DNA of 64,000 nt from the NCBI GenBank assembly GCA_000004695.1, contig CM000153.2:3360001-3424000 (forward strand), read 5' to 3'. Under the pieces are notes generated by a model. That model worked only from the letters and a program-made list of their open reading frames with translations. It made no database searches and was not told the origin of the DNA. Position 1 is the first letter of the stretch, and every line of letters begins with the position of its first letter. Positions 5,761-62,586 of the stretch are shown piece after piece. The translations under genes and the position numbers were made by a program. This DNA comes from Dictyostelium discoideum (taxonomy: Eukaryota).

Positions 5761-5902
5761 GTCTAAAAGAGGGTCAGTTTATTTTTTTATTTTTTTATTT
5801 ATTTTTTTTTTTTTTATTTTTTTATTGAAATTTTTTTTTTTTTTTTTATTTTGAAAATTTTCAAAAAAAAAAGAAAAAAATAATCAGACAGATAAAAACA
5901 AT

Positions 5903-6067
5903 CAACAACCTCTTTTTTTGATTATTTCATTTTTCATATAAAAAGACTTAAAAACAAACAAATAAATAAAGTATACTTATTTTAAAAAGCCATTTTTTGC
6001 TATTTATTTATTTGTTATTAAGTCTTTTTATATGAAAAATGAAATAATCAAAAAAAGAGGTTGTTGG
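5903..6067. repeat. Large near-perfect palindrome (arms about 48 nt perfect, about 70 nt imperfect; about 65 nt spacer)
   Basis: caacaacctctttttttgattatttcatttttcatataaaaagacttaa at 5903-5950 is the exact reverse complement of 6018-6067. Confidence 0.85.
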
Positions 6068-6111
6068 TTATTTTAATCTCAAAAAGAAATCGAAGGTTTT
6101 TTTTTTTTTTT

Positions 6112-6190
6112 TTTGAATTGGATAACGCAATTATTAGTTGCTTCTCCTTGAGATGCTAGATCTCATTTTATTTGTACTTTTTATAAATCG
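6112..6190 (+). repeat. Direct repeat copy A' (partner of 5686..5760)
   Basis: See copy A. Lies about 35 bp upstream of the tRNA-Tyr. Confidence 0.7.
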
Positions 6191-6226: not shown

Positions 6227-6309
6227 CCGGCTTTGGCGCAATGGTAGCGCGATTGACTGTAGTAAATTAAGTGATCAATCGGTTGCTAGTTCGAATCTGG
6301 CAAGCCGGA
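6227..6309 (+). tRNA. tRNA-Tyr (anticodon GUA) with an 11-nt intron (about 6263..6273)
   Basis: Acceptor stem ccggctt/aagccgg. D arm gcgc-aatggta-gcgc. Anticodon stem attga/tcaat with loop ct-GTA-g plus intron. T arm gctag-TTCGAAT-ctggc. Discriminator A followed by a T5 Pol III terminator. Eukaryotic tRNA-Tyr genes characteristically carry an intron. Confidence 0.85.
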
Positions 6310-6346
6310 CTTTTTCCAACCACCAATTATAAGACGCATGTTCGAC

Positions 6347-13389: not shown

Positions 13390-13703
13390 AAAACAATTTG
13401 TTAACTTTGTTTTTTCATAACCATATTTTGATTTTATTTTAAAAGAATGAAAATCAGTGTACAATTTTAGCACCACTGTGGTGATGTTGTTTTTTTTTTT
13501 TTATATTATTATTATAATTTATTTTTATTTTTATTTAATTTATTTTTTTTTTTATTTATTTAAATTTTTTTTTAATTGCATAATTTAATTAAAAAAAAAA
13601 AAAAAATTTATTATAATAACAACATTTGTAAATAATAAAAAAAATAATAATAATATAAAATAAAAAATAATAATAATAATAATAAAGAATAATAATATTA
13701 ATA

Positions 13704-15482
13704 ATGAAAATATTAAAAATATTATTATTAATAATACTATTATCATCAATTGATAGTTGTATTTCAATATCAAGTAAAAATGTTAAAAGAAGATTATTTA
13801 ATAATGAAGAGGATATAGTATCTACAAAAGATGGATTAATTAGGGGAATTGTTGTTAAAGATCATCGTGTATTCTATGGTATTCCTTTTGCTCGTCCACC
13901 AATTGATGAATTACGTTTTGAAGATCCAATTTTTCCAAGAGTTTGGAAAAATGTAAAAGATTGTACAAGACAAAAGGAACAATGTATTCAAAACTGTAGA
14001 TTGGGTAATGGAGCATGTTCTCAAGTTGGAACTAGTGAAGATTGTCTTTATTTAGATGTTTTTGTTCCAAGAAAATCAGATATTACAAATTCTTCTTTAA
14101 TTCCAGTTTTAGTTGTTATTCCTGGTTTGTATTTTTAAAATTTAATAAAATAAAAAAAAATAAAAAAATAAATAATATTAATTTTTTTTATTTATATATA
14201 TTAAGGTGGAGCATTTGTACAAGGTACTGGATCATGTTTACTTTATGATGCAAGTAAATTTGCAAATTCATCAATTATTGTTGTAAATATAAATTATAGA
14301 CTTGGAGCATTAGGTTTTTTGGGAACTGATTTATTAAGTGGTAATTTCGGGTTCTTAGATCAAGTTATGGCTTTACAATGGGTAAGATCAAATATTGAAG
14401 CATTTGGTGGTGATAAGAATAAAGTGACCATTTTTGGAGAATCTGCTGGTGCATTATCTGTGATATCTCATTTAGTTAGCGAACGTTCAAAGAATTTATT
14501 CCAACGTGCAATTGTATCATCGGCAACCTTTACACTTGGTTTAAAAACTAAATCACAGATTAGAGGTATTTCAAATGGTTTCACAAGTAAAATTGGTTGT
14601 AATATTGAAGATATTGATTGTTTACGTTCAAAGTCACCAGAAGAGATTTTAAAAGCACAAGATCAAGTTGCAAATGTATTCAGGGGGAAGCTATTAGATA
14701 TTGTAACAGTTTGGACACCAGTTGTAGATTGTGATATTATATTAGGTCAACCGTTAACAATGATTAGAGATGGTATTTTAGTTAATAATGTCCCATTGAT
14801 AATTGGTGAAACTAAAGATGAGGGTAATTTATTTGTATATTTTAATTTCCAAAAAAAGATCACACAACATAAATATAGAAATATGATTTCCCTAATGTTT
14901 GGCTCAAATAGTCAAATGGTTTTAAATAAATACCCCGCTCCGACAAGTGATGATGGTGATAATAAAGGAGATTGTAGACCTATTTTATCGAAATTATATG
15001 GTGATTACGTTTTCCGTTGCCCAAATAGATATCTAATTAATAGATTATTAACTCAAAATAATAAATCATCATCATCATCATCACCTGTAATTTACCATTA
15101 TCAATTCAGACATTCATTATCAAGTGGTAATCCAATTCCTTATTGTAGTGGTATTGTTTGTCATGGTTCTGAATTACCTTTAATTTTTAATACATATGAA
15201 TCTGCAATGAATTTTGAATTGGATGATGATGAAATTCAATTCTCTCAAGATATTAATAGATATTGGGTAAATTTCATTTCAAATGGTGACCCAAACAAAG
15301 GTTTATCCTCATCAACTATGATAGATTGGTCACCAATTACAAAATCTTTAAATAACTCTTTAATTATGGTACCAGAATTTCAATTAAATGATATTATCTC
15401 CATTGATGGAAGATGTAATTTATTTGATAAAATTTCATATAGAGGTTATACTAAAAAAAATTCAAAACTTTGTCCAAGTTAA
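13704..15482 (+). CDS. Type-B carboxylesterase (cholinesterase-like; crystal-protein/D2 esterase family), exons 13704..14124 and 14206..15482
   Basis: Signal peptide. EDCLYLDVFVP. VIPG|GAFVQG is interrupted by an 81-nt intron. Active-site GESAGA. Cys pairs. Confidence 0.8.
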
Positions 15483-15644
15483 CATTTTTTTTAAAAAAAT
15501 TAAAAAAAAAAAATAAAAAAAATAAAAAACAATAAAGAGAATATCATTTTTACAAATCCTTAATTTAGATTTTTAAATCTCCCCAATCTTTTGTTTTTTA
15601 CTTTTATTTAAATTTTTAAAAAAAAAAAGAAAAAAGTTTAATTT

Positions 15645-17390
15645 TTATTTTTTACTCTTTCTCATTCTATTTTGATCTTTAGTATAACCATTATAAGATA
15701 GTGAATCGAATAAATCACATTTTGGATCATTGGTAATAAGATCTTTAACTTCGAAACCAAGTTTCATAACTAAAGAGGTATTGGTAGTTTTAGTGGTTGG
15801 ATTCCAAACTTTTGGAGTTGGTAAACCATTAGGATGACTTGGATTAGAGTATTTAATGAAATTAACGAAATAATTATTTAATTGTTCAGCAAATTCTTCT
15901 TCTTCCTCTTCTAAATCTAAATCAAGTGCACTTTCATATGTATTGAAAACCATTGGTAATTCAGTACCATGACAAACTAAACCTTCACATGCTTCAAATG
16001 AATGACCTCCTGATAATACTTGTTTGTATTGGTAATGGTAAATTGGTGATTCATTGGCTTGAGCTGATTTTGAGACATGGTATCTACCTGGACAACGGAA
16101 GAGGTAATCGGTGAGTAATTTAGATAATATTGGTCTACTATCTTTTAAGAAACCTGGTAATGGATAATGCTCTAAAACTTTATTACCATTTGCAATACCG
16201 AATAAAACATGTACCATGGTTCTATAGGAACTTGGAATCACAACATTTTTATACGTCATGTAAACAAAGAGTATAGCCTCATCTTGGTTATCACCAATAA
16301 TGGTTGGAACATCATGAGTTGTACCTTGTTTTATCATTGTCAATGGTTGTTCATTTACATTAATTCCGTCGACCACTGGTGACCAGATTGTAAAAGCATC
16401 AAGAATCTTATCACCAATAGCCAAACCAAGTTCCTTTTGAATTGCTAAAATCTCCTCTGGTGATTTTGAACGATGGCAATCGATATCTTCAAGATCACAA
16501 CCAATCTTACTTGAGAAACGACCTGCAAATCCTCTTGCAACAGTTTGACTCTTCAAACCAACAGTATATGGTGTAGAAGAAAGAATTGCACGATGGAATT
16601 TACCTTCAGATTTTTCACTAGACAAATGAGCAGCAACTGAAAATGCACCTGCAGATTCACCATAAATTGTAACTTGATTCTTATCACCACCAAATACTTC
16701 AATATTTTCTTGAACCCAATCTAAAGCCATAACTTGATCTAAGAAACCAAAATTACCACTTAATAAACCAGTACATAAGAAACCTAATACACCAAGACGA
16801 TAGTTTACATTTACAACAATAACTGATGAATTTGCAAATTTAAGACCATCATAAAGTGGACATGAACCAGTACCTTGTGTAAATGCACCACCTAAAAAAT
16901 ATTTAAATAAAAAAATAAAATTTCAATTAATATTTGAAAAAATAATAATAAAAATAATAATAATAATAATTTATAAAAACATACCTGGAATAAAAACCAT
17001 TACTGGTACTTTTGAACCTGGATTAACTGTTCTTGGAATGAATACATCTAAATAAAGACAATCTTCACTTGTACCAACTTCAGAACAACTTCCTTTACCT
17101 AATTTACAATCTTGAATACATTGGTCTCTTTGTTTAGTACCATCTCTAACATAGGACCATGGCTTTGGTGGTTGTGGATCTTCATAACGTAATTCGTCAA
17201 TTGGTGGACGGGCAAACGGAATACCGTAAAATACACGATGAGTATCGGTTACTGTACCTCTAATAGCACCATCGGATAATAAAACTTCATTATCACCTAA
17301 AGTTCTAATACCTTTTCTACCAAATTTTTTAGCTGCTGATATAATATCAAATGATAATAAAATAATTAATAAAATTATTATTTTATTCAT
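15645..17390 (-). CDS. Type-B carboxylesterase paralog, exons 17390..16985 and 16891..15645
   Basis: Same architecture: EDCLYLDVFIP, FIPG|GGAFTQG split by a GTATGT intron at the identical codon position, GESAGA. Convergent with the gene at 13704. Confidence 0.8.
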
Positions 17391-17496
17391 TTTATTTTGG
17401 ATTTTAAATAATTATAATTATTATTATTGAAAATAAATTAATGAATGGAAAAGAAAAAAAAAAAAGACTTAAATACATTTTTATTTTTATTATCAT

Positions 17497-26767: not shown

Positions 26768-28025
26768 TCTTTTGAAAGTAATAGATTAATTGTAAATTAA
26801 CCCAATTTAATTTTATTATTACTAATTGTATTTTTTATTTTTAATTATTAATTATTTTTTATTTTTTTTATTTTTTTTATTTTTTTTATTTTTTTTTTAT
26901 ACAATTTTTTTTTTTAAAGTGATAAATAAATGTAATATTGGTAATTAAAAATATTATTATATTATTATTATATTTATTATTATTATTTTTTTTAATTGTT
27001 TGGAAAAAACAAAATCAATTATTGATGGTTTATTTTTTTTTTTATAAAATTATTTATTTAATTATTGTGTTATTAATATAACAATTGTTTAAAAATATAA
27101 GTATCTTTTTTTGTAGTTTTTTGAATCGAATATTTTTTTTTTTTTTATAACCCAATTGAATTGGATAAATGTAATTTAATTATTATTTTTTTTTTTTTAT
27201 TTTTTAATTTTTTTTATAATTTTTTTTTTTTTTATTATTTATTATTTAATTTTTTATTGCATTTTTTAAATGATTTATACAGCTTTATTGCACTGAGAAA
27301 GATAACATAATATATACATTTTAGCACACATTCACACAAACACACAAACACACAAACACACAAACTCAAATTCAAATGTCTCAGTAAAAAAAAAAAAAAA
27401 AAAAAAAAAAATTGGATTGAATAATCATTAAATATTGTTATCATTTTTTATTTATTGAGTTTTTAAGTATGCAAGGGTGATAATGATAGATATATTATAC
27501 AAATTAAATCATTTAATTAAATTTGTAAAAAAAAAAAAAACCAAAACAGGTTTATTAAATTTTTTATTAATTTTATTTTATTTATTTGGTGGTAATATTA
27601 CTGTTTCAATAAATTTTATATTATTTTTTTATTTTATTTAATTTTTTTCAAAAAATAAAGCACCTATCTCATTCCACACACACTAACCCCGATTTTTTAA
27701 TTTTTATTTTTATTAAATTTTTTTTTATTTTTTTTTTTTATTTGTCATTAATTTTTTTTTTATTTTATTTGAAGAGACAAGATGCGAGAAATAATTTGAT
27801 AAAAATCTGATTTTTTTTTTTAAATAACGATTTCATGACAAAAAAAAAGGTTATTATTTATAGATGGCTTGAAAAATTAATAATAAAAAAAATTAAATAA
27901 ATGCAAACATTTATTCCTATTTAAAAGGTTTTTTTTTTTTAATAATTAAAAATAAAATATTTAAACAAATAAATAAAAAATAAAAAATATAAATAGTTAT
28001 TAAATAAAATAAAATAAATAAAAAA

Positions 28026-28740
28026 ATGAATTCAATTGAAAATAATAATAAAATTTGGTTAATCACCGGAACATCAAGTGGTATAGGTTTAGAATTTGTA
28101 AAGAAATTATTTGAAATATGGTTATAAATTATCAGCATTAACTAGTAAACCAGAAGAGATTATAAAAGAGATTAAATTTGAAAAAGATAATTTATTAATT
28201 GTTAAAACTGATATTACAAACAATGAATTAGTAAAGAATGCAGTGACTAATAAACAATTTGGTAGAATTGATGTATTGGTTAATAATGCTGGTTATGGTT
28301 TAGTTGGTGCAATTGAAGAATTATCAGATTCAGAGGTTAGAAAGATATACGATGTAAATGTATTTGGCGTTTTAAATTTATTAAGAAATTCAACACCATA
28401 TTTTAGAAAACAAAAATCAGGTTTAATAATTAACATTTCCTCTCAAATGGGTTGGGATAGTATGCGAAATTATTCAGCCTACAGTTCAACTAAACATGCA
28501 GTTAATGCAATTACATTATCAGCACAAAAAGAGTTTAAACCATTTGGTGTAAATGTAATTTTGATATTTTTAATAAATATGCTTTCACCCGTTTCGCTCA
28601 AGAGTTTGATCTCTATTTTGGTCTTGCTTTATTCACTGGTTTAACTGCTTTAGATACTCACAATGTAAACCAGATTTCATTAGAGTTCCAATTGATCTAT
28701 TTTTAGATATTTTAAATATCTCCGTTAGACTTTTAAGAGC
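28026..28740 (+). pseudogene. Chimeric pseudogene: short-chain dehydrogenase/reductase (SDR) 5' two-thirds with a +1 frameshift near 28110, fused at about 28580 to a copy of the last about 55 codons of the TMBIM gene (53814..54983)
   Basis: TGTSSGIGLEFVKKLFE Rossmann motif then a frame break. NNAGYG...S...YSSTKHAV SDR catalytic pattern. From about 28580 the sequence is the inverted duplicate of 53817-53990 with an internal deletion. Confidence 0.6.
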
Positions 28741-30370
28741 TGGAAGTTAGTAAACAAAAAAAAAAAAAAAAAAAAAATATAAAAAAAGATAAAAAAAAAA
28801 AAAAAAGAAAAAAAAAAAGAAATAAAAAATGTGGTATTAAAATTTGTAAATAAATAAATAAAGCTGTAATTAAATTTAATCAAATAAAAAATTTTATGGA
28901 AGAATTTTTTAGAAAACAAAAAAAAAAAAAAAAAAAAAAAAATTATTTGAAAATCTAGCAAACGATCGAACGTAAAAAATAATTGGATATTATTTTATGA
29001 AAATTAGAAATCTATTTTAAAAAGTTTAATTTAAATAATGTTTTGGATTGGTTTTATTAAAAAAATTATTTTTTATATGCAAAAGTTATTTTTTAATTTT
29101 TTTTTTTTTTTTTATCAAAATGATTATTTTAAAAAGTTTTGTTTTTTTTTTTTTCTTTTTTTAAAATTTAAAGAAATTATCATGTGATTATTTTAAAATC
29201 CAAACGAAATAAAAGAAATTTATTTTTTAAAAATATCTTTTTCACCAAAAAAAAAAAAAAAAAACCATCGTTTGTGTAAAAAAAAAAATACATTTCGATA
29301 AAATTCAAAATCAGAAAAAAAGTTACTTTTTTAACAAAAAATGACAGAAAAATATAAGGTAAACTTTTTTTATATTTTATTTTTATTTTATTTTTTAAAT
29401 TATAATTTCAATGTTGTAATTTTCCGACATCATTTTCTCAAATTAATTCAACAAATGGGTTTTTAATATCAGAAGGCAGAAGTTTAATTTCAATTGAACA
29501 TGGAGACTTGAATGGTGATGGTAATGATGATTTGATATATTCTATAAATTCAGAAGGACTATATGTATTTTATGGGCCATTGGCAAGTAATTTTGATTTT
29601 CAACATTAAATGGAGTAATGGTTTTTTAATTAATAATTTCAATCCATTTTCTGCTTATCTTTATGATATGAATAATGATGGGATTGGTGATATAATGATA
29701 AATAGGGGACATATAGCAATCGATATTATTTATGGTAGTAGAGGTCCTTTTACCTCACCATATATCCCAGTTTATGATGGTGTCAAAAGTACCAGTTTCA
29801 GCTTTTTAGGTTGCTCAATAGATACTAATACTCTTCCAAATGCTTTTGGAGATTTTAATAATGATGGACTTAATGATTTTGGTGTAATTTATTCTTTATT
29901 ATTTTTGATTATTCTTATTCTTTATTATTCTTTATTGTTATTATACTAATTTTTACATTTTATTAAAAAATTTTAGATTCTTACAAGACTGACTTCGGGT
30001 GACCAAATAGCTTTTTTGGTTTGGGGTAAAACAGAATATCCACCAACAACAACATTAAGTATAAATCTAAATCCATCGGATGGTTTGGTTATAACAGTTG
30101 TTGGCAACACCTATAACTGGGCTTTATCTCCTAGATTGGGGATATAAATAATGATGGATTTGCAGATTTTTTAATCAGTGGTAACACTGACCTCCCATTC
30201 ACCATTTTGTATGGTAATAATAAAAATTATGCTTCAAATCCAATTTATTTAAAAGATCAAGTTGGTGATTGTTCAATAATGTCAATTAATGGCTATGTTG
30301 AGGCTATTGATATTGGTGATTATAACTCTGATGGTATTCATGATATTGTAATTAATATTATATTAAATCA

Positions 30371-30446
<76 letters not shown>

Positions 30447-31885
30447 TTTAAATAATTCTATTCTATCAGACAGCATATATAATAGCAACAGGTTCATATT
30501 TAGATATTTATACACTATATGGTCAAACTTCAATTGGTTCAATTTCAATAATTGGTAAATTATTTCTACCAAATCCAGTGTCAAACACAATTTATAAATT
30601 ATTTGAAAATAATATTAATTCAGAAGTTGGACAATGCGCAATTAGAATTGTTACATTAACAATTGAAAATTCAGCAAATGAAGATCAATTTATTATTGAT
30701 CCTAGTTTCAATAGTTCAATATATTCAATAGCATTTAATAATAATACAAGAGTTAGAATTGAGTTAATATTATTTGGTGATGAGAGTAAATCAATTGCAA
30801 ATGATGTTTTACCAAAAATAACAGTTTCATTATCACCTCAACTATTTAATAGAACTGTATTAATGAAATATGGTAATCAAGTACAATCAATTAATGCCCA
30901 AATGCAAATTGTGACACAAAATGTTTAAATAGTGGTACTTGTAATCCACTCACTGGTTGCCAATGTATAAATGATCATTATGGTGATTTTTGTGAATTAA
31001 AAGATTGTACAGTTCCACAATGTTTAAATGGTGGTTCATATAATACAACAGTTGATGAATGTTCATGTCCTCAAGGTTATGAAGGTACGGATTGCAGTGG
31101 TATTAGTTGTTCAGCTTCATGTTTAAATGGTGGCTCATGTAATACTACGGTTGGTGAATGTTCATGTCCTCAAGGTTATGAAGGTATGGATTGCAGTGGT
31201 ATTAGTTGTCCAGTTTCATGTTTAAATGGTGGTTCATGTAATACTATGGTTGGTGACTGTTCATGTATAAATGGCTTTTATGGTGATGATTGTGATACAA
31301 AGGATTGTACAGTTCCACAATGTTTAAATGGTGGTTCATGTAATACAACAGTTGGCGAATGTTCATGCACTCAAGGTTATGAAGGTATAGATTGTAGTGG
31401 TATTAGTTGTTCAGTTTCATGTTTAAATGGTGGTTTATGTAATACTACAGTTGGTCAATGTCAATGTGTTGAAGATTATGAAGGCGATGGTTGTGGTTCT
31501 GAAAACAAAAAGAAAATAAATATTGGTGTTATTATTGGTCGAATTTTAGATGGTCTTGCACTAATTGCAATTATTGTTGTTGCCATTGTTTTAATTAAAA
31601 AGAAGAAGAATGGAAATTCAAAGAAAAATACAAATAACATTGAATTAAGACCTCAAAGTTCCACTGTTGATATTCAAATGGGTGGTAGAATTAAAAATCT
31701 TGATAAATTTTAAATTTAAAAAGAGATTATTTTAAATCAATTATGTTGTATTATTATTATTTTTTAACAAAAAAAATAAAAAAAAAAAAAAAAAATTTTG
31801 ATCAAAATGATTATAATAAAAAAAAATACAAACCGCAGGGGTTATTTTTAAAAATAATTTGAAACAATTCAGTGATTTCAAAATA
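28560..31885. repeat. Left arm of a large inverted segmental duplication (partner 49765..54005)
   Basis: Reverse-complement identity of TMBIM 3' end plus flank, whole FG-GAP/EGF gene and about 170 bp of its 3' flank. The left arm carries deletions and frameshifts. Confidence 0.8.
29340..31713 (+). pseudogene. Degenerate copy of the FG-GAP/EGF-repeat membrane protein gene (intact copy 49926..53089)
   Basis: Same exon order and sequences. Missing about two FG-GAP repeats. Frameshift near 30130. Mutated donor near 30350. Truncated EGF array. Broken into four short ORFs. Confidence 0.7.
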
Positions 31886-32106
31886 AATAAAAATAATTAG
31901 CATCATTATCATCATTAAGCACTAGTTCTTTGAAATAAAGTGTTTCTTCAATTGAAACTGGTAGTTCAAGTGGTTCATTTGGTTCAAATGAAACATCGGG
32001 ATGGGGTTACCATCATTGAATAGTTGTCATCCATGTCCACCACCACGTCCAATTTGTCGTCCATGTCCACCACCACCATGTCGTCCAGTACCAAGATGTC
32101 ATCATT
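31881..32106 (+). pseudogene. HssA-like family copy 1 (second-exon fragment with in-frame stops), at the inner edge of the inverted repeat
   Basis: Homologous to 32571..32779 and 33569..33774 but with TAA/TGA in frame and no recognisable first exon. Confidence 0.4.
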
Positions 32107-32570
32107 AAAGTTTAAAATTAATAAATAGATCTTTAATATGTTTGGAATTTAAATAAATAATTTTTCTTTTTAAAAAATATATTCAAACACATTGAATTTG
32201 ATTTTAGAAAATTTACTACCAATAAAACTAATGATAATAAAATTCTTTTATTAACAAAATTTATTATTAAACAGAAATATAGAATGTATTAGTGATGCTC
32301 AAAAAACTGATGATTTAAAATATGTTAGAGAATGGGTTTATTCCTTTGTGAATCAATGTCCAATACATAATCCAACAGTTTTTTTTTTTTTTTTTTTTTT
32401 TTTAATCCTAGTCCTAATTTGGGATGTGCCATTGTGACCACTAAATCCATTTTCAATTTATTTCAACAAAGTTTGCAGGGTAAATTAAAAAATATAATAT
32501 TTAAAAAAAATAAAATTGCATAGGAAATTTATTTTTAATGAAATTTTTTTATTTTTATTAAAAATCTATT

Positions 32571-32862
32571 TTAATATTTATAATGGCATCTTGGTTCTGG
32601 ACGGCATGGTGGACATGGACGACAAATTGGACGTGGTGGTGGACATGGATGACAACTATTCCAATGGTGGTAACCCCATCCCGATGTTTCATTTGAACCA
32701 AATGAACCACTTGAACTACCAGTTTCAATTGATGAAACACTTGATTTCAAAGAACCAGTGCTTAATGATGATAATGATGCTAATTTTTATAAATTATTTA
32801 TTAATAAAAAAATAAATTTAAATTTTTTTTTTTTAGGAAAAAAACTTACAAAATAGGGTCAT
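32571..32862 (-). CDS. HssA/2C/7E-like small Cys/Pro-rich protein (73 aa), exons 32862..32850 and 32779..32571
   Basis: 13-nt first exon ATGACCCTATTTT plus GTAAGT. Product [73 protein letters not shown]. Confidence 0.6.
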
Positions 32863-33186
32863 TTTAAAATTTTAATAGTTTCTTGTTTAAAAATTAGAGT
32901 TTGATTTAATATTTTTTTTTTCTAATTTGGTTACAATTTATAGTTTTTTTTTTCTGAAAAAAAGAATAAAAAAACAAATAATTTTTTAATTTTATTTTTA
33001 AAATCATACTTTTTGTTTTTTCATTTCTATTTTTTTTTATATCAAAAAACTTAAACTCCCCCCCATTATATTTTTCTATTTGACTTGTTATATTATTTAT
33101 TCATAAATGATTACTTGTTATATTAATTATTATTATAAATGGGGCCTTTGGATTTTGAAATATCAAGAATTCTTAAAATAAAAAAG

Positions 33187-33229
<43 letters not shown>

Positions 33230-33303
33230 ATTCATAAAATTAAAAAACTATAAAAACAAAAAATCAATTTTTAAAATATTAATTATAAATCAAAAAAAAA
33301 AGC

Positions 33304-33774
33304 ATGAGTATTTTCAGTAAGTATAATTTTTTTAGAAATATTGTAAAACTCAGTAAAATTTGTCATAAATATTTTTAAAAATAATAATAAATAATTAATT
33401 ATAATTATTCCTACAAAATAAATGTTTTAATAATTAAACCACTTTGTTGATCCCCCTAACATGGTGAATTTCTTAATTTCGAAATTTTTGCTCAAATTTT
33501 CCTGTATTTTACAATATTTAAATAAATAAAATAAACTAAATTTAAACCCTTTTTTTAAATAAATATAGGTTCATTATCATCATTATCCACTGGTTCTTTG
33601 AAATCAAGTGTTTCTTCAATTGAAAACGGTAGCTCAAGTGGTTCATTTGGTTCAAATGAAACATCTGGATGGGGTCAACACCACTGGAATAGTTGTCATC
33701 CATGTCCACCACCACGTCCAATTTGTCGTCCATGTCCACCATGCCGTCCTGAACCAAGATGTCATCGTTATTAA
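33304..33774 (+). CDS. HssA/2C/7E-like small Cys/Pro-rich protein, exons 33304..33316 and 33569..33774
   Basis: 13-nt first exon ATGAGTATTTTCA plus GTAAGT, about 250-nt intron. Product [18 protein letters not shown]...[26 protein letters not shown]. Confidence 0.55.
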
Positions 33775-33940
33775 ATTTAATAAAGTTTTAAAAATAAATT
33801 TAACCTTTAAAAAAAAAAAGGTATTTTTAGAAAATTGGAAAAGTAGTATTAAAAATTTTTATTGTGTTTGTTAGAGAAAAAAAAATAGTATAAAATACTA
33901 ATAACCAAACAAAAAACAAATGTTTTTAAATATATTTAAA

Positions 33941-34706
33941 TTATTTTGAATTAAAGTCATAGTAAGAAACTTCACCATCAGAAAAACCAGCTAACATTGT
34001 TTCATCATCTATTGATAAACATTCTACGGGTGATAAATTATTAATGGTAGTTAAAAGGTTTGGTTCATTACTACCCTCTAAATTCCATAAACAAATTGAA
34101 TCTTCATCCCTTGTACACATACGTAAATTATTATAGATACTTATTGCTTTAACCTTTGAGGAATGAGATTTTATATTGTGGATGGCAGAACTTGGATTTC
34201 TGATATCCCACATTCTAATGGTCTTATCGCTTGAACCTGTAATCAATTGATAATCATTTAAAAAGTTGAGACAATTAACTGAACCTTTGTGACCATTGAG
34301 AACCAATTCAGTTTTATTTGAGTCTATATCCCATAGCTTAACAGTTTTATAAGTACATGCAATCATACAAAAGTTTTCAAACCTTCCAATTAAAATGATT
34401 AATTTTGGTGTTTTCAATTTCTATCATTTGCAATTCCTGTTCAGTTTCGCTATCATATAGCTTTACGGTATTACTTTCATAAGAGTAAATATCTCTTTTC
34501 ATGAAAATGAAACCATTAGAAACGTAGAGAAAACGTTGTTCTTTTTCAATTTCTTTGTAGCGATATTGTAATGTTGAATTGCACGATTTGAACAACCCAA
34601 TCTAATGATACCATGCATAAATAAACAATATGAGAATATCTGTTGAAAGTTTAGTAAAATTATCCGTTTCAAATGAAATAACTGAACTTGCACCACATCT
34701 AGTTTA
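33941..34706 (-). pseudogene. Truncated/frameshifted WD40-repeat gene fragment
   Basis: C-terminal WD repeats (GHKGSVNCL...ITGSSDKTIRMWDI...) are intact in one frame. The upstream part is spread over three frames and ends abruptly at a poly(G) tract. Confidence 0.5.
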
Positions 34707-34722
34707 TGGGGGGGGGGGGGGG
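34705..34722. repeat. G18 homopolymer at the junction of the WD40 fragment and a 60-bp repeated element
   Basis: The same 60-bp element at 33135..33200 has only GGGG. Very atypical for this AT-rich genome. Confidence 0.7.
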
Positions 34723-34847
34723 GGGCCTTTGGATTTTGAATTATCAAGAATTCTTAAAATAAAAAAGTCTTAAAAAAAAAAAAAAAAAAATAAAAAAAAA
34801 ATTTAAATAAATAAATAAAAAAAAAAATTAAAATGAATTCAATTGAA

Positions 34848-35356
34848 AATAAAAATAATAAAATTTGGTTAACCACTGGAACATCAGGTGGTAGAAATCA
34901 AAAATCAGGTTTAATAATTAACATTTCCTCCCAAATGGGTTGGGATAATACGCAAAATTTTTCAGCCTACAGTTCAACATAACACGTAGTTAATGCAATT
35001 ACATTATCAGCACAAAAAGAGTTAAACCATTTGGTGTAAATGTAATTTTAGTTAGTCCAGGTTGATTTAAAACTAGTTTCGTAGCTGGTCAACAATCAAA
35101 CTTTCAAGTACCTTCTAAATTAATTGATGAATATTCAACTCAATCATTCATTGATATGTTTAATAAATATTCAACATATTCAAAAGGTCATCCTGAAAAA
35201 GCAGCTGAACTCTTAATTAAATTACCAACAATCGAACAATTACCAAATAATTTATTCATTGGTTCTGGTTCATTATCAGCTGGTAAACAACAATTACAAT
35301 CACATTTATTAGAACCTGAAAAATGGTCTGAAATTTCAATTTCAGCTGGTTATTAA
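34848..35356 (+). pseudogene. Second partial SDR copy (internal deletion, stop and frameshifts; only the last 66 codons, 35156..35356, are open)
   Basis: MNSIENKNNKIWLTTGTSGG then deletion to ...SGLIINISSQMGWDN. Stop in STKHAVNA region. The 3' part carries the C-terminus missing from the copy at 28026. Confidence 0.6.
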
Positions 35357-35636: not shown

Positions 35637-36818
35637 ATGTATGAGACAGAAGAAGACCCAACTACATCAAATGTAGCAACAACAAATAATGAAAAAACAG
35701 CATCAACAGCAGCAACAACAACAGAACCAGTTAAAAAAGTAACAGAATTTATGAGAGTTCAAAGATTATTTAGACAAGTTACAAAATCAGCAAATGGAAA
35801 GAATATACCTAAAGAAAAAAGAGAACCAATTGATTATTCACCAGTTTTAGATTTTCATAATTTAGAGAATAATACAGAAGAGAATAAAAAGTTAATAATT
35901 GATTGTACATCAAATGTAACGACCCATGATTTTGAATTCAATAGGGATACAGAGTTTTATTTACATCCAAGAGAATGGAAAGTTTATGGGTTACAAGGTT
36001 ATCCAGGATTTTATTTCATTAAATCACCATTTACAGCATCACAACAAAAGAAATGGATTAAACATGCATTAGAAGATTATGCAGATCCACCAAATAATAA
36101 CAATATCACCTTATTCCATGGTCCAATAAAGAATCTTTGGAAAAATGGTGAAAAAGAATTAATCAATGAAGAATTAAAGAGTCAAGGTAAACATGATGAT
36201 GATGAAATTGAACAACCAACAAGACCATTAGATAAAAATGGTGAACCATTACCAACCTATCGTCAACTTTTAGATAAATTAGCTTGGTCAACATTGGGTT
36301 ACCAATATCAATGGACACCAAGATTATATAGTGAGGAATTCTATGAGGAATTCCCTGACGATCTTCAAGAATTGGTTCAAAAGATTGCAATTGCAACTAA
36401 ATTCGATCCATATGTTGCAGAGGCCGCAACCGTTAATTTCTACTCTGAAGATTCAATTATGGGTGGTCATTTAGATGATGCCGAACAAGAAATGGAGAAA
36501 CCAATCATTTCAATTAGTTTCGGTAGTACTGCCGTATTTTTAATGGGTGCTGAAACTAGAGATATCGCTCCAGTTCCTCTATTCATTCGTAGTGGTGATA
36601 TAGTGATTATGGGTGGTAGATCAAGATATTGTTATCATGGTGTGGCTAAAATTGTTGAAAATTCTTTTGATCTTGGTTTAATCGATGAAAATGATGATCA
36701 AGATTTAAAATATAAAATTCAATGGTTAAAAGAAAAAAATAGAAGAGTTAATATAAATACAAGACAAGTTTTTAAAGTTCCAAAATTAGGTGGTAAATTA
36801 ATTAATAAAAATGAATAA
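35637..36818 (+). CDS. AlkB homolog 1 (ALKBH1)-like Fe(II)/2-oxoglutarate dioxygenase
   Basis: [67 protein letters not shown] and RVNINTRQV match the ALKBH1 signature blocks. Confidence 0.75.
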
Positions 36819-49764: not shown

Positions 49765-54005
<4,241 letters not shown>

Positions 54006-55233
54006 ACGGGTGAAAGTATTCTCACCCATCATTATTGAAGTACCAATTGAAACCAAACCCAATCCGAAAAGACCAAACAAGCTACCATAGAGTATTGGTT
54101 TATATTTGGTTAAACTATCAGGTTTCATCTTTAATGCAGCAAAAGCACTACCACCAGTAACGAATACACTTAAAGCTGCGACCCCCAAAACTGTAGATAC
54201 TGGTAGTAATCCGAAAGCGGGTGATAGTGAAATTCCATTGAATACACAAAATGAAACGAATGCCATTTTATGTAACGTTGAATAATTGGCAACTGTAATT
54301 GGTATAACCGATTTACTGAATTCTTCAAACTCTATTACACTTTTACCACTTTTATCAACACTTTTTAAAATTGGTTTCTTTACACTATTATCCAATGGAC
54401 CATCCCAAATGGTGTCATAAGTTGTATATGTAGGTTGTTGCATATTGCAAAGTATTAAGGACAACATTGATCCGCCAACTCCCAATCCCAATGCGGTTGG
54501 CAACGATTGCGGACTACCGACCATCAATTGGGAAAATATTAAACCTGATAAAATTGTACCAGCGAATGCAATTGCAGTTGTAATATAAACATTCTTTAAA
54601 AATAATTTTAAACCAATATTTGTTTTAATTAAATGGAAATAATCATCATAATCTTTTTTTAATAATAAAAAATTACTATCTTTAATTATATCCGAAAAAG
54701 ATGGATTTCCGAATGGTGTTGTTTTACCATAATTTCTATTATTTAAAAAATTATTATTTTTAAAATAATTTTTATTTGAAATTAAATTATATTTATTTTT
54801 AAAATTTAATAAGGTATTATTATTACTATTAATATTAATATTATTATTATTATTATTATTACTAAAAAATTTATTATTATTATTGACTTCACCAACAATA
54901 ATATTATTATTAATTGGTAGTTGTGTTAAATTTAAATAATTCTTTTTAATTTTTAGAATGTTACGAAAATTTGAACTTAACATGTTAATTTTTTTTTTTT
55001 AATTCAATTATTATAAATTAATTATGAAATAAAAAATAAGAAAAAAAAATTTAAATGGAAAAAAAATAAAGGAATGGAAAAAAAAAAAATTAACAAAAAA
55101 TAAAAAAAAAATAAAAAAAAAATAAAAATTTTGAAAAAAAGATGTCACACACACTCAGATAGATTTGCAAAAAATTTGGATTTTTCAAATAAATGTAAAA
55201 AAAAAAAAAAAATTAAAAAAAAAAAAAAAATTT

Positions 55234-55703: not shown

Positions 55704-59613
<3,910 letters not shown>

Positions 59614-59734
59614 ATTAAATTTTTTAAAAAAAAAAAAAAAAAAAATTAAAAAAAGAAATTAAATTATTGTAAATTATTTTAAACTAATAAATAAATAAAT
59701 AAATAACAAATTTATTATTAATTAATTAATTATG

Positions 59735-59992
<258 letters not shown>

Positions 59993-60007
59993 TTAATTAA
60001 TTAATCA

Positions 60008-60507
<500 letters not shown>

Positions 60508-61029: not shown

Positions 61030-61345
61030 TAATAAAAATTTGGTTATATCACAAAATATCCTTCTTCTACAATTTTATCTTGCATTCCATATAGCCAATG
61101 GTTCAATGATCCATTGTTTGCTCATGATAAAAATGGAAGATCCAGAAAAGGTGGTCTTCAAGATCTTTCTTCTCAAATTAGATCTGGTCAATTATTCATA
61201 GATAGAAGAGTTGGTGATTCTGTCATTGCTCAAACTCAAAATGTTGATAGTTTAAGAAAAAATTTTAATCAACTTCAACTACAACTCTAAATGCTCCACC
61301 AGCTATTAAAATTGAATTACCTTCTCAATCAATTTTAAAACCATC
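61030..61345 (+). pseudogene. Mosaic fragment: about 70 nt of hydrolase 5' coding region (minus-sense) joined to about 245 nt of the formin C-terminal coding end with an internal deletion, followed by copies of the formin 3' flank
   Basis: 61035-61100 resembles 62290-62380. 61100-61345 resembles 59108-59613 (FAHDK...MEDPEKGGLQDLSSQIRSGQLF...). The flank motif aattaaattattgtaaatta...ataacaaatttatta recurs at 59650, 61420 and 61620. Confidence 0.65.
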
Positions 61346-61734
61346 AGTTCATTTAAAAAATAAATTAAACTTTTTTAAAAAAAATAAAAAAAAATAAAAT
61401 AAAAAATAAAAAAAAGAAATTAAATTATTGTAAATTATTTTAAACTAATAAATAAATAAATAAATAACAAATTTATTACTAATTAATTAATTAATTATGA
61501 CTTATTATTATTATTAATATTTATAATACTCTTTTAAATAATTCAATTAAAAAAAAAAATTTTAAAAAAAAAAAAAAAAAAAGAATAAAAAAAAAAAAAA
61601 GGAAGTAATAAAAAAAAAAAATTAAAGAAATTAAATTATTGTAAATTAATAAATAACAAATTTATTATTAATTAATTAATTATGATTTATTATTAATTAA
61701 TTAATTATTATTTACTATTATTTATTATTATTAT

Positions 61735-62586
<852 letters not shown>

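Follow-up and report, generated by a model that had tools for sequence, protein, structure and literature searches.

Duplicated, non-processed chimeric pseudogenes form at the boundaries of segmental duplications. Complex rearrangements that combine duplications with inverted duplications are attributed to replicative template switching (FoSTeS/MMBIR), and duplication can also give birth to young chimeric fusion genes, as in the jingwei-type cases of Drosophila. For Dictyostelium discoideum, Bloomfield et al. 2008 (PMC2643946) describe large recent duplications, 15 kb or more in size, in laboratory stocks. The locus analysed here lies in a 64,000-nucleotide stretch of the D. discoideum genome (hereafter the window), which has about 22% G+C and contains long homopolymer and AAT runs. 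It belongs to a known kind of object, the duplicated chimeric pseudogene, and sits where a small inverted segmental duplication ends; in it, the 5' part of a short-chain dehydrogenase/reductase (SDR) gene is joined to the 3' end of a Bax-inhibitor family (TMBIM) gene.

As in other duplicated chimeric pseudogenes, a partial gene copy carried on a duplicated segment, here of TMBIM, abuts a truncated host gene, here the SDR. Both parents are identifiable (TMBIM in the window, SDR orthologs in relatives), the disabling mutations are real, and the locus shows multiple disabling indels and stops, is lineage-specific and carries substitutions that, on small counts, look close to neutral. It differs from that class in that the host gene persists as two overlapping partial copies flanking the insert and in that the original joint was in frame. 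With FoSTeS/MMBIR products it shares inserted DNA copied in inverted orientation from a nearby site, about 20 kb away, as well as duplicated flanks, 2-nt microhomologies and a mosaic insert, although we infer the mechanism here from one old, decayed allele, some junctions of which are blurred by later deletions and low-complexity DNA. Like a jingwei-type gene, the chimera had an in-frame SDR(1-225)::TMBIM(323-389) ORF at birth, with the native SDR promoter and the TMBIM 3' UTR. Unlike such genes, its ORF is destroyed, with a stop after 33 codons, and past expression or selection of it is unsupported. The laboratory-stock duplications are likewise segmental duplications in the D. discoideum genome, but the AX4 locus is only 3-4 kb, inverted, old and about 7% diverged.

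Nothing at the locus is surprising in kind. The new details are the in-frame birth of the chimera, a 103-nt deletion that hides it, and the loss of a gene from AX4 as shown from its relatives. The practical use is a correction of annotation, since NCBI, UniProt and the databases derived from them list the reference entry DDB_G0285753 (Q54N15) as a protein, under the name 'hypothetical protein'. In terms of gene content, an SDR still intact in the closest sequenced relatives has been lost from AX4-type D. discoideum. For genome evolution, the locus offers a cleanly resolved complex rearrangement in a very AT-rich genome, an inverted duplication accompanied by duplication of the flanking gene, with junctions and polarity resolved.

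We consider it very probable that a single ancestral SDR gene was broken by a complex rearrangement in the AX4 lineage, that all of the resulting pieces have decayed to leave a non-functional chimeric SDR::TMBIM pseudogene, and that the gene model drawn over the locus is an artefact. The parts of the locus, and the parental genes downstream, are the following.

28026-28562 (+): SDR-A, which retains nt 1-554 (codons 1-184) of an ancestral SDR of 286 codons together with its native 5' flank
28110-28112 (+): +1 T frameshift in SDR-A, TTA TTG AAA changed to TTA TTT GAA A, as aligned to five orthologs and paralogs
28563-28580 (+): SDR codons 220-225 (DMFNKY, here DIFNKY), split from the SDR body by a 103-nt deletion
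28581-28750 (+): TMBIM (Bax1-I) 3' fragment, parent codons 323-389, aligned to 53814-54017 (-)
28579-31880 (+): left arm (3.3 kb) of the inverted duplication, copied from 54019-49767 and since decayed
29341-31713 (+): FG-GAP/EGF pseudogene copy, with broken ORFs and Pfam FG-GAP_3 and EGF matches
31881-34755 (no strand assigned): middle part of the insert, about 2.9 kb, with three Cys/Pro-rich mini-ORF elements and a WD40 fragment
33941-34747 (-): fragment of a WD40-repeat gene, possibly F-box/WD40, with at least two frame disruptions
34833-35356 (+): SDR-B, in which codons 133-286 directly follow codons 1-20; its native 3' flank extends as far as alkB
49767-54019 (-): right (parental) arm, including the intact FG-GAP/EGF gene at 49926-53089 (-)
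53814-54983 (-): parent TMBIM/Bax1-I gene, intact, 389 aa, Pfam Bax1-I at 2e-19 (70.6 bits)

The body of SDR-A, once its frame is corrected by hand, matches Pfam PF00106 adh_short with E=3.6e-44 (151 bits against a cut-off of 26.6), and the visible motifs TGTSSGIG, NNAGYG and YSSTK are those of a classical short-chain dehydrogenase/reductase. The copy is collinear with the orthologous loci of four relatives (L009, L014, L016 and L018). We aligned it with copy B and with related SDRs and located its lesions against the intact gene of L018, relative to which it carries in-frame deletions of 3 nt, 9 nt and 6 nt and 8 copy-specific substitutions. The extra T at 28110-28112 is missing from every intact ortholog in the alignments, and the ATG frame opening at 28026 runs for 33 codons before a TAA at 28125-28127. 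In composition, SDR-A consists of nt 1-554, the 103-nt deletion at 28562/28563, and nt 658-675. It lacks codons 226-286, and a single ORF of about 250-290 codons covering the whole fold is not present. The initial annotation had read an SDR frame from 28026 with a 1-nt insertion near 28110, and both observations hold. It was also right that neither SDR copy is complete, as no continuous ORF exists in either.

The short stretch that follows the SDR body, 28563-28580 (GATATTTTTAATAAATAT), agrees with SDR codons 220-225 (GAT ATG TTT AAT AAA TAT) at 17/18 nt in all orthologs and with positions 35153-35170 of copy B at 17/18 nt. A 20-mer search of the window with two mismatches allowed returned only the query itself and 35151-35170, against 0.12 matches expected by chance. 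The match to codons 220-225 rules out that the 16 nt at 28563-28578 are untemplated filler. The stretch is thus a remnant of the SDR, SDR-A has therefore suffered a 103-nt deletion, and the true joint lies at 28580/28581, where SDR codon 225 (28578-28580) is directly followed by TMBIM codon 323 (28581-28583; ACT in the parent, GCT in the chimera). Since 28026, 28563 and 28581 are in the same phase, the original joint between SDR residues 1-225 and TMBIM residues 323-389 was in frame. The two parents have a 2-nt AT in common at the joint, and a shared TCACC lies 0 and 3 nt further on, respectively.

Beyond the joint, the first 88 nt of the TMBIM fragment are identical to the parent at 87/88 positions, so that the proposed similarity of 28580-28740 to 53817-53990 is indeed present. 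The copied portion of the parent, which is called as a gene in the second assembly GCA_054883475.1, comprises its last 67 codons (53817-54017). The fragment has lost 22 nt at 28664/28665, which shifts the frame, and 9 nt at 28746/28747, and it ends with the TAG at 28748-28750. Its match to Pfam PF01027 Bax1-I (E=6.8e-6, 26.4 bits) falls under the cut-off of 34.1, and the full multi-pass membrane domain of about 200 residues is not contained in it. Today the frame of the SDR body enters the joint out of frame and stops at 28642-28644. Between its ATG and the stop of the TMBIM part, the frame is broken three times, by the +1 T, by the 103-nt deletion and by the 22-nt deletion. Viewed as a fusion gene, the chimera thus has an in-frame junction but no intact ORF across both parts. 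The initial annotation had the SDR switch near 28580 into the last about 55 TMBIM codons. The TMBIM 3' end does begin at 28579/28581, but the SDR body already ends at 28562, with codons 220-225 in between, and the TMBIM piece derives from 67 parent codons (323-389) broken by the 22-nt and 9-nt deletions.

In both self-BLAST and the alignments, the edge of the left arm coincides with the SDR/TMBIM joint. The arm contains the TMBIM tail, 0.7 kb of intergenic DNA, the FG-GAP/EGF gene from end to end and about 160 nt past its stop. Self-BLAST of 28579-29603 against 54019-52820 gave E=0, and in a global alignment of the two arms 93% of the aligned sites are identical, while 20 indels fall within the arm. 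The parental FG-GAP/EGF gene at 49926-53089 (-) encodes 932 aa in the annotation of GCA_054883475.1. Its left copy has frameshifting deletions of 7 nt, 1 nt (three times) and 10 nt, together with in-frame losses of 516, 54 and 201 nt. These deletions in the coding sequence make the copy a pseudogene as well.

The middle part of the insert is of another kind. Protein and DNA searches for a donor of 31881-34755 revealed no counterpart elsewhere in the window or in any fetched related locus, the matches being to the same strain only. For the WD40 fragment, a search with its 216-aa protein returned only the fragment itself; GCA_054883475.1 annotates it as the 194-aa protein ACTFIT_005787. An element of ~250 bp occurs in three copies that are 86-88% identical, at 31850-32118 (+), 32568-32830 (-) and 33556-33784 (+). 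Its ORF ends in a Cys/Pro/His-rich peptide and is interrupted by an in-frame stop in copy 1, and the element is absent from all related loci fetched. In addition, a unique sequence of ~60 nt (GGGGCCTTTGGATTTTGAA.TATCAAGAATTCTTAAAATAAAAAAGTCTT) followed by poly-A is found twice in the insert, at 33141-33200 and 34722-34790, which indicates a further internal duplication of the middle segment. We also considered a third SDR 5' fragment at 33141-33289 and rejected it, as only the ~60-nt non-SDR part and the poly-A are common with 34722-34862.

On the other side of the insert, SDR-B matches Pfam adh_short with E=4.9e-15, and its segment 34892-35049 is 93% identical to SDR-A 28404-28562 (self-BLAST, E=1.6e-61). 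The copy is without nt 61-396, an in-frame loss of 336 nt (codons 21-132) with a 2-nt TA microhomology at the deletion. A TAA replaces the catalytic Lys162 of the YxxxK motif (34980-34982), a TGA occupies the Gly190 codon (35063-35065), and a 1-nt deletion at 35023/35024 shifts the frame. Upstream, the ATG and at least about 40 nt of native sequence are kept, up to a boundary blurred by low-complexity DNA. Downstream, SDR-B ends at the native stop, after which the native 3' flank adjoins alkB (35637-36818). The protein encoded by this alkB is identical to its AX4 counterpart, and together with the mismatch-free exons of DDB_G0285753 (see below) this places the window on chromosome 4 of AX4. 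Two earlier statements on this copy thus need correction. It had been described as 5'-deleted, which is wrong given the retained ATG, codons 1-20 and at least about 40 nt upstream; and its C-terminus at 35030-35356 had been called intact, which is wrong as well, since the TGA at 35063-35065 lies inside that range, with the TAA and the 1-nt deletion just upstream of it.

We compared the syntenic locus, which runs RPS19 - F-box/LRR gene - SDR - alkB, in six relatives.

D. discoideum ACTFIR (L018): a single SDR of 286 codons, intact and intronless, flanked by the LRR gene and alkB
D. discoideum ACTFIW (L014): likewise a single SDR of 286 codons, intact and intronless, flanked by the LRR gene and alkB
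D. dimigraforme (L016): one intact SDR of 289 codons
D. cf. discoideum (L009): a single SDR, which has lost 1 nt
D. citrinum (L015): three SDRs in tandem, all intact
D. firmibasis (L017): no SDR at the locus

No part of 28563-34755 is found at the locus in any of the six. Moreover, SDR-A has the orthologous 5' flank and SDR-B the orthologous 3' flank. The single SDR of four close relatives, together with the division of its flanks between A and B, indicates that a single gene is ancestral and that only in the AX4 lineage was it split by an insertion. As to timing, the two arms differ by about 7% at aligned sites, and the differences between AX4 and the relatives amount to 3-6% at third codon positions in the flanking genes and to 6-15% between genes. 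By this rough dating the event is old, roughly of the age of the lineage splits.

Several further observations concern this SDR family. In D. cf. discoideum (L009:10001-10860, GCA_054859205.1), CCATTTGG has become CCATTGG at codon ~179, and the gene model P0004 hides this 1-nt deletion in an intron; either the gene has become a pseudogene independently there, or the assembly contains a homopolymer error. The three SDRs of D. citrinum (L015:1140-9789, GCA_054859325.1), which encode 301, 288 and 288 aa, are found upstream of alkB, separated by small genes, and are an independent expansion at the same locus. Beside GATA and tgr/TIG genes of ACTFIR and ACTFIW (L008 and L010), there is a cluster of paralogous SDRs whose identity to the reconstructed SDR is 84-86%; it contains intact copies as well as partial or internally deleted ones, e.g. 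the 196-aa P0019. The SDR subfamily seems prone to duplication and decay.

The anatomy described above fits a mechanism that starts from one intronless 286-codon SDR between the F-box/LRR gene and alkB. Sequence from upstream of the start to nt 675 is found on both sides of the insert, which is the pattern expected of replication that leaves its template and returns upstream of the point of departure. We infer that replication would have left at SDR nt 675, copied inverted DNA and returned upstream of the SDR start. The rearrangement would thereby have duplicated the SDR 5' ~750 bp and separated the two copies by about 6.2 kb of copied DNA. This inserted DNA consists of a segment from about 20 kb downstream, copied in inverted orientation (the final 67 codons of TMBIM and the whole FG-GAP/EGF gene), plus about 2.9 kb of other fragments. 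The resulting order is 5' flank, SDR nt 1-675, inverted copy, other fragments, SDR from at least -40 to its end, and 3' flank. The 2-nt microhomologies at the readable junctions fit the template-switch pattern. SDR codon 225 would have been joined in frame to TMBIM codon 323 by this event. In the subsequent decay, and with the presumable loss of function of every piece, SDR-A gained the extra T and lost 103 nt, the TMBIM tail lost 22 nt, the FG-GAP/EGF copy suffered five frameshifting deletions, and SDR-B was left without codons 21-132 and with two stop codons and a frameshift.

Could the lesions be sequencing errors, or the gene be a real one? The genome is AT-rich and homopolymer-rich, and elsewhere the window differs from GCA_054883475.1 mainly in homopolymer lengths, so that frameshifts from homopolymer errors, or a chimeric join from repeat mis-assembly, deserve a hearing. 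GCA_054883475.1 is an independent, chromosome-level assembly (locus-tag prefix ACTFIT); across the roughly 40 kb that L001 and L002 represent, its identity to the window is 99.7-99.8%. Over 28026-28750 it is 100% identical, every lesion and the junction included, and a base-by-base reading of 27900-28900 found the length of an A-rich run as the sole difference. The lesions are therefore not sequencing errors, and no intact SDR ORF emerges from the correction of such errors. The presence of the structure in GCA_054883475.1 shows only that it is real. As the arms are only 93% identical, a collapse or mis-join does not account for them, and deletions of 103, 22 and 336 nt are unlike homopolymer errors; an artefact of this sort is hardly conceivable. 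A genuine spliced protein-coding gene is very improbable, too, despite the two automated annotations that call one here and the GT..AG boundaries that can be found. DDB_G0285753 (P0018 = XP_638128 = Q54N15, 324 aa) joins SDR to FG-GAP exons (28026-28079, 28135-28554, 29554-29883 and 29977-30144) and shows no mismatch to the window. Its intron 1, 28081-28135, is 55 nt long and 80% A+T; in the intact orthologs, which are intronless, that stretch codes GIGLELVKKLLKYGYKVS (GIGLE..YGYKVS), which contains half of the NAD(P)-binding TGxxxGxG motif. Its 55 nt are the exact length needed to absorb the +1 T, which is the only reason for this intron to exist. Intron 2, 999 nt, spans the TMBIM piece, after which the model takes the longest ORFs of the FG-GAP pseudogene, with exon 3 starting out of frame relative to the parental gene. 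The product would be without the GxG and the C-terminal third of the SDR. GCA_054883475.1 carries a different, 829-aa fusion model, so that the two annotations disagree. A literature search for DDB_G0285753 found no papers, and none of the broken ORFs of the window was present in the protein collection in an exact-sequence look-up. Short Logan contigs, considered as evidence of expression, end at genomic homopolymer runs, and one of them spans an intergenic region and an intron; we rejected them as genomic and hence uninformative. On these grounds we conclude that DDB_G0285753/Q54N15 and the 829-aa model would both be prediction artefacts.

The remaining alternatives accept the pseudogene and differ on its history. 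If the two-copy structure with its insert were ancestral, the relatives would have lost the insert by recombination between the SDR copies. In D. cf. discoideum the SDR resembles A within the overlap and B further downstream, as expected of such a recombinant. This account needs loss in at least four lineages, the outgroup D. dimigraforme among them; moreover, the single copies of the relatives are intact and free of all A and B lesions, the arms began to diverge no earlier than the lineages split, and no remnant of insert or arm was found at this locus in the relatives, which together make it highly unlikely. A second point concerns the substitutions, which number 9/572 nt in SDR-A and 21/524 nt in SDR-B when only copy-specific changes are counted (Fisher p=0.016), or 1 (A) against 7 (B) within the 158-nt A/B overlap. 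The ratio of nonsynonymous to synonymous changes is 6:3 in SDR-A and 17:4 in SDR-B (two stop codons included), close to neutral on small counts, with A less diverged than B. The smaller number in SDR-A fits poorly with both copies having been neutral since a single event. It suggests either that A, possibly as the in-frame fusion, was constrained for a time or that the SDR was duplicated first and A truncated later. In a history of the latter type, a tandem SDR duplication came first, B decayed with a complete A functional, and a microhomology-mediated deletion later fused nt 675 of A to a downstream TMBIM fragment, making the joint secondary. We regard it as possible but doubtful. The 2.5-fold deficit of copy-specific substitutions in SDR-A (p=0.016; 1 vs 7 in the overlap) speaks for it, tandem SDR arrays do arise at this locus, as the three copies in D. 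citrinum attest, and microhomology at the joint is also a product of deletion. However, the joint falls exactly at the end of the arm homology, no trace is left of the 3' end of A or of additional TMBIM sequence, more events are needed than in a one-step model, and the substitution counts are small. The chimeric pseudogene had initially been placed at the duplication breakpoint. The joint does form the left end of the inverted duplicate 28579-31880, but it may instead be a secondary deletion junction. A period of constraint on the fusion itself, a 225-residue SDR Rossmann core followed by the last two TMBIM membrane helices under the native SDR promoter and with the TMBIM 3' UTR, would mean that it was expressed and selected for a while and then died; alternatively, a transcript of the decayed locus may regulate the parental TMBIM or FG-GAP/EGF gene. 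We rate this proposal as improbable; if true, temporary selection on the fusion would account for the significantly lower divergence of SDR-A relative to SDR-B. A one-step rearrangement of a single ancestral SDR thus remains our preferred reading.

We also looked for an association of the breakpoints with tRNA genes or transposons, and no tRNA gene lies near them. Elsewhere in the window, a 258-nt palindrome (78%) at 5860-6117 adjoins a tRNA-like call at 6227-6310, the anticodon of which is undetermined (ARAGORN, bacterial settings on eukaryotic DNA). A large imperfect palindrome at 13669-17428, 67% self-complementary over 3.9 kb with arms at 14178-14552 and 16545-16919 (78%), is probably a pair of inverted paralogous genes. 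Finally, direct repeats about 1.75 kb apart occur at 59376-59756 and 61129-61521 (91%) and at 59948-60101 and 61662-61807 (87%), and they overlap two genes of ~100 aa called in GCA_054883475.1.
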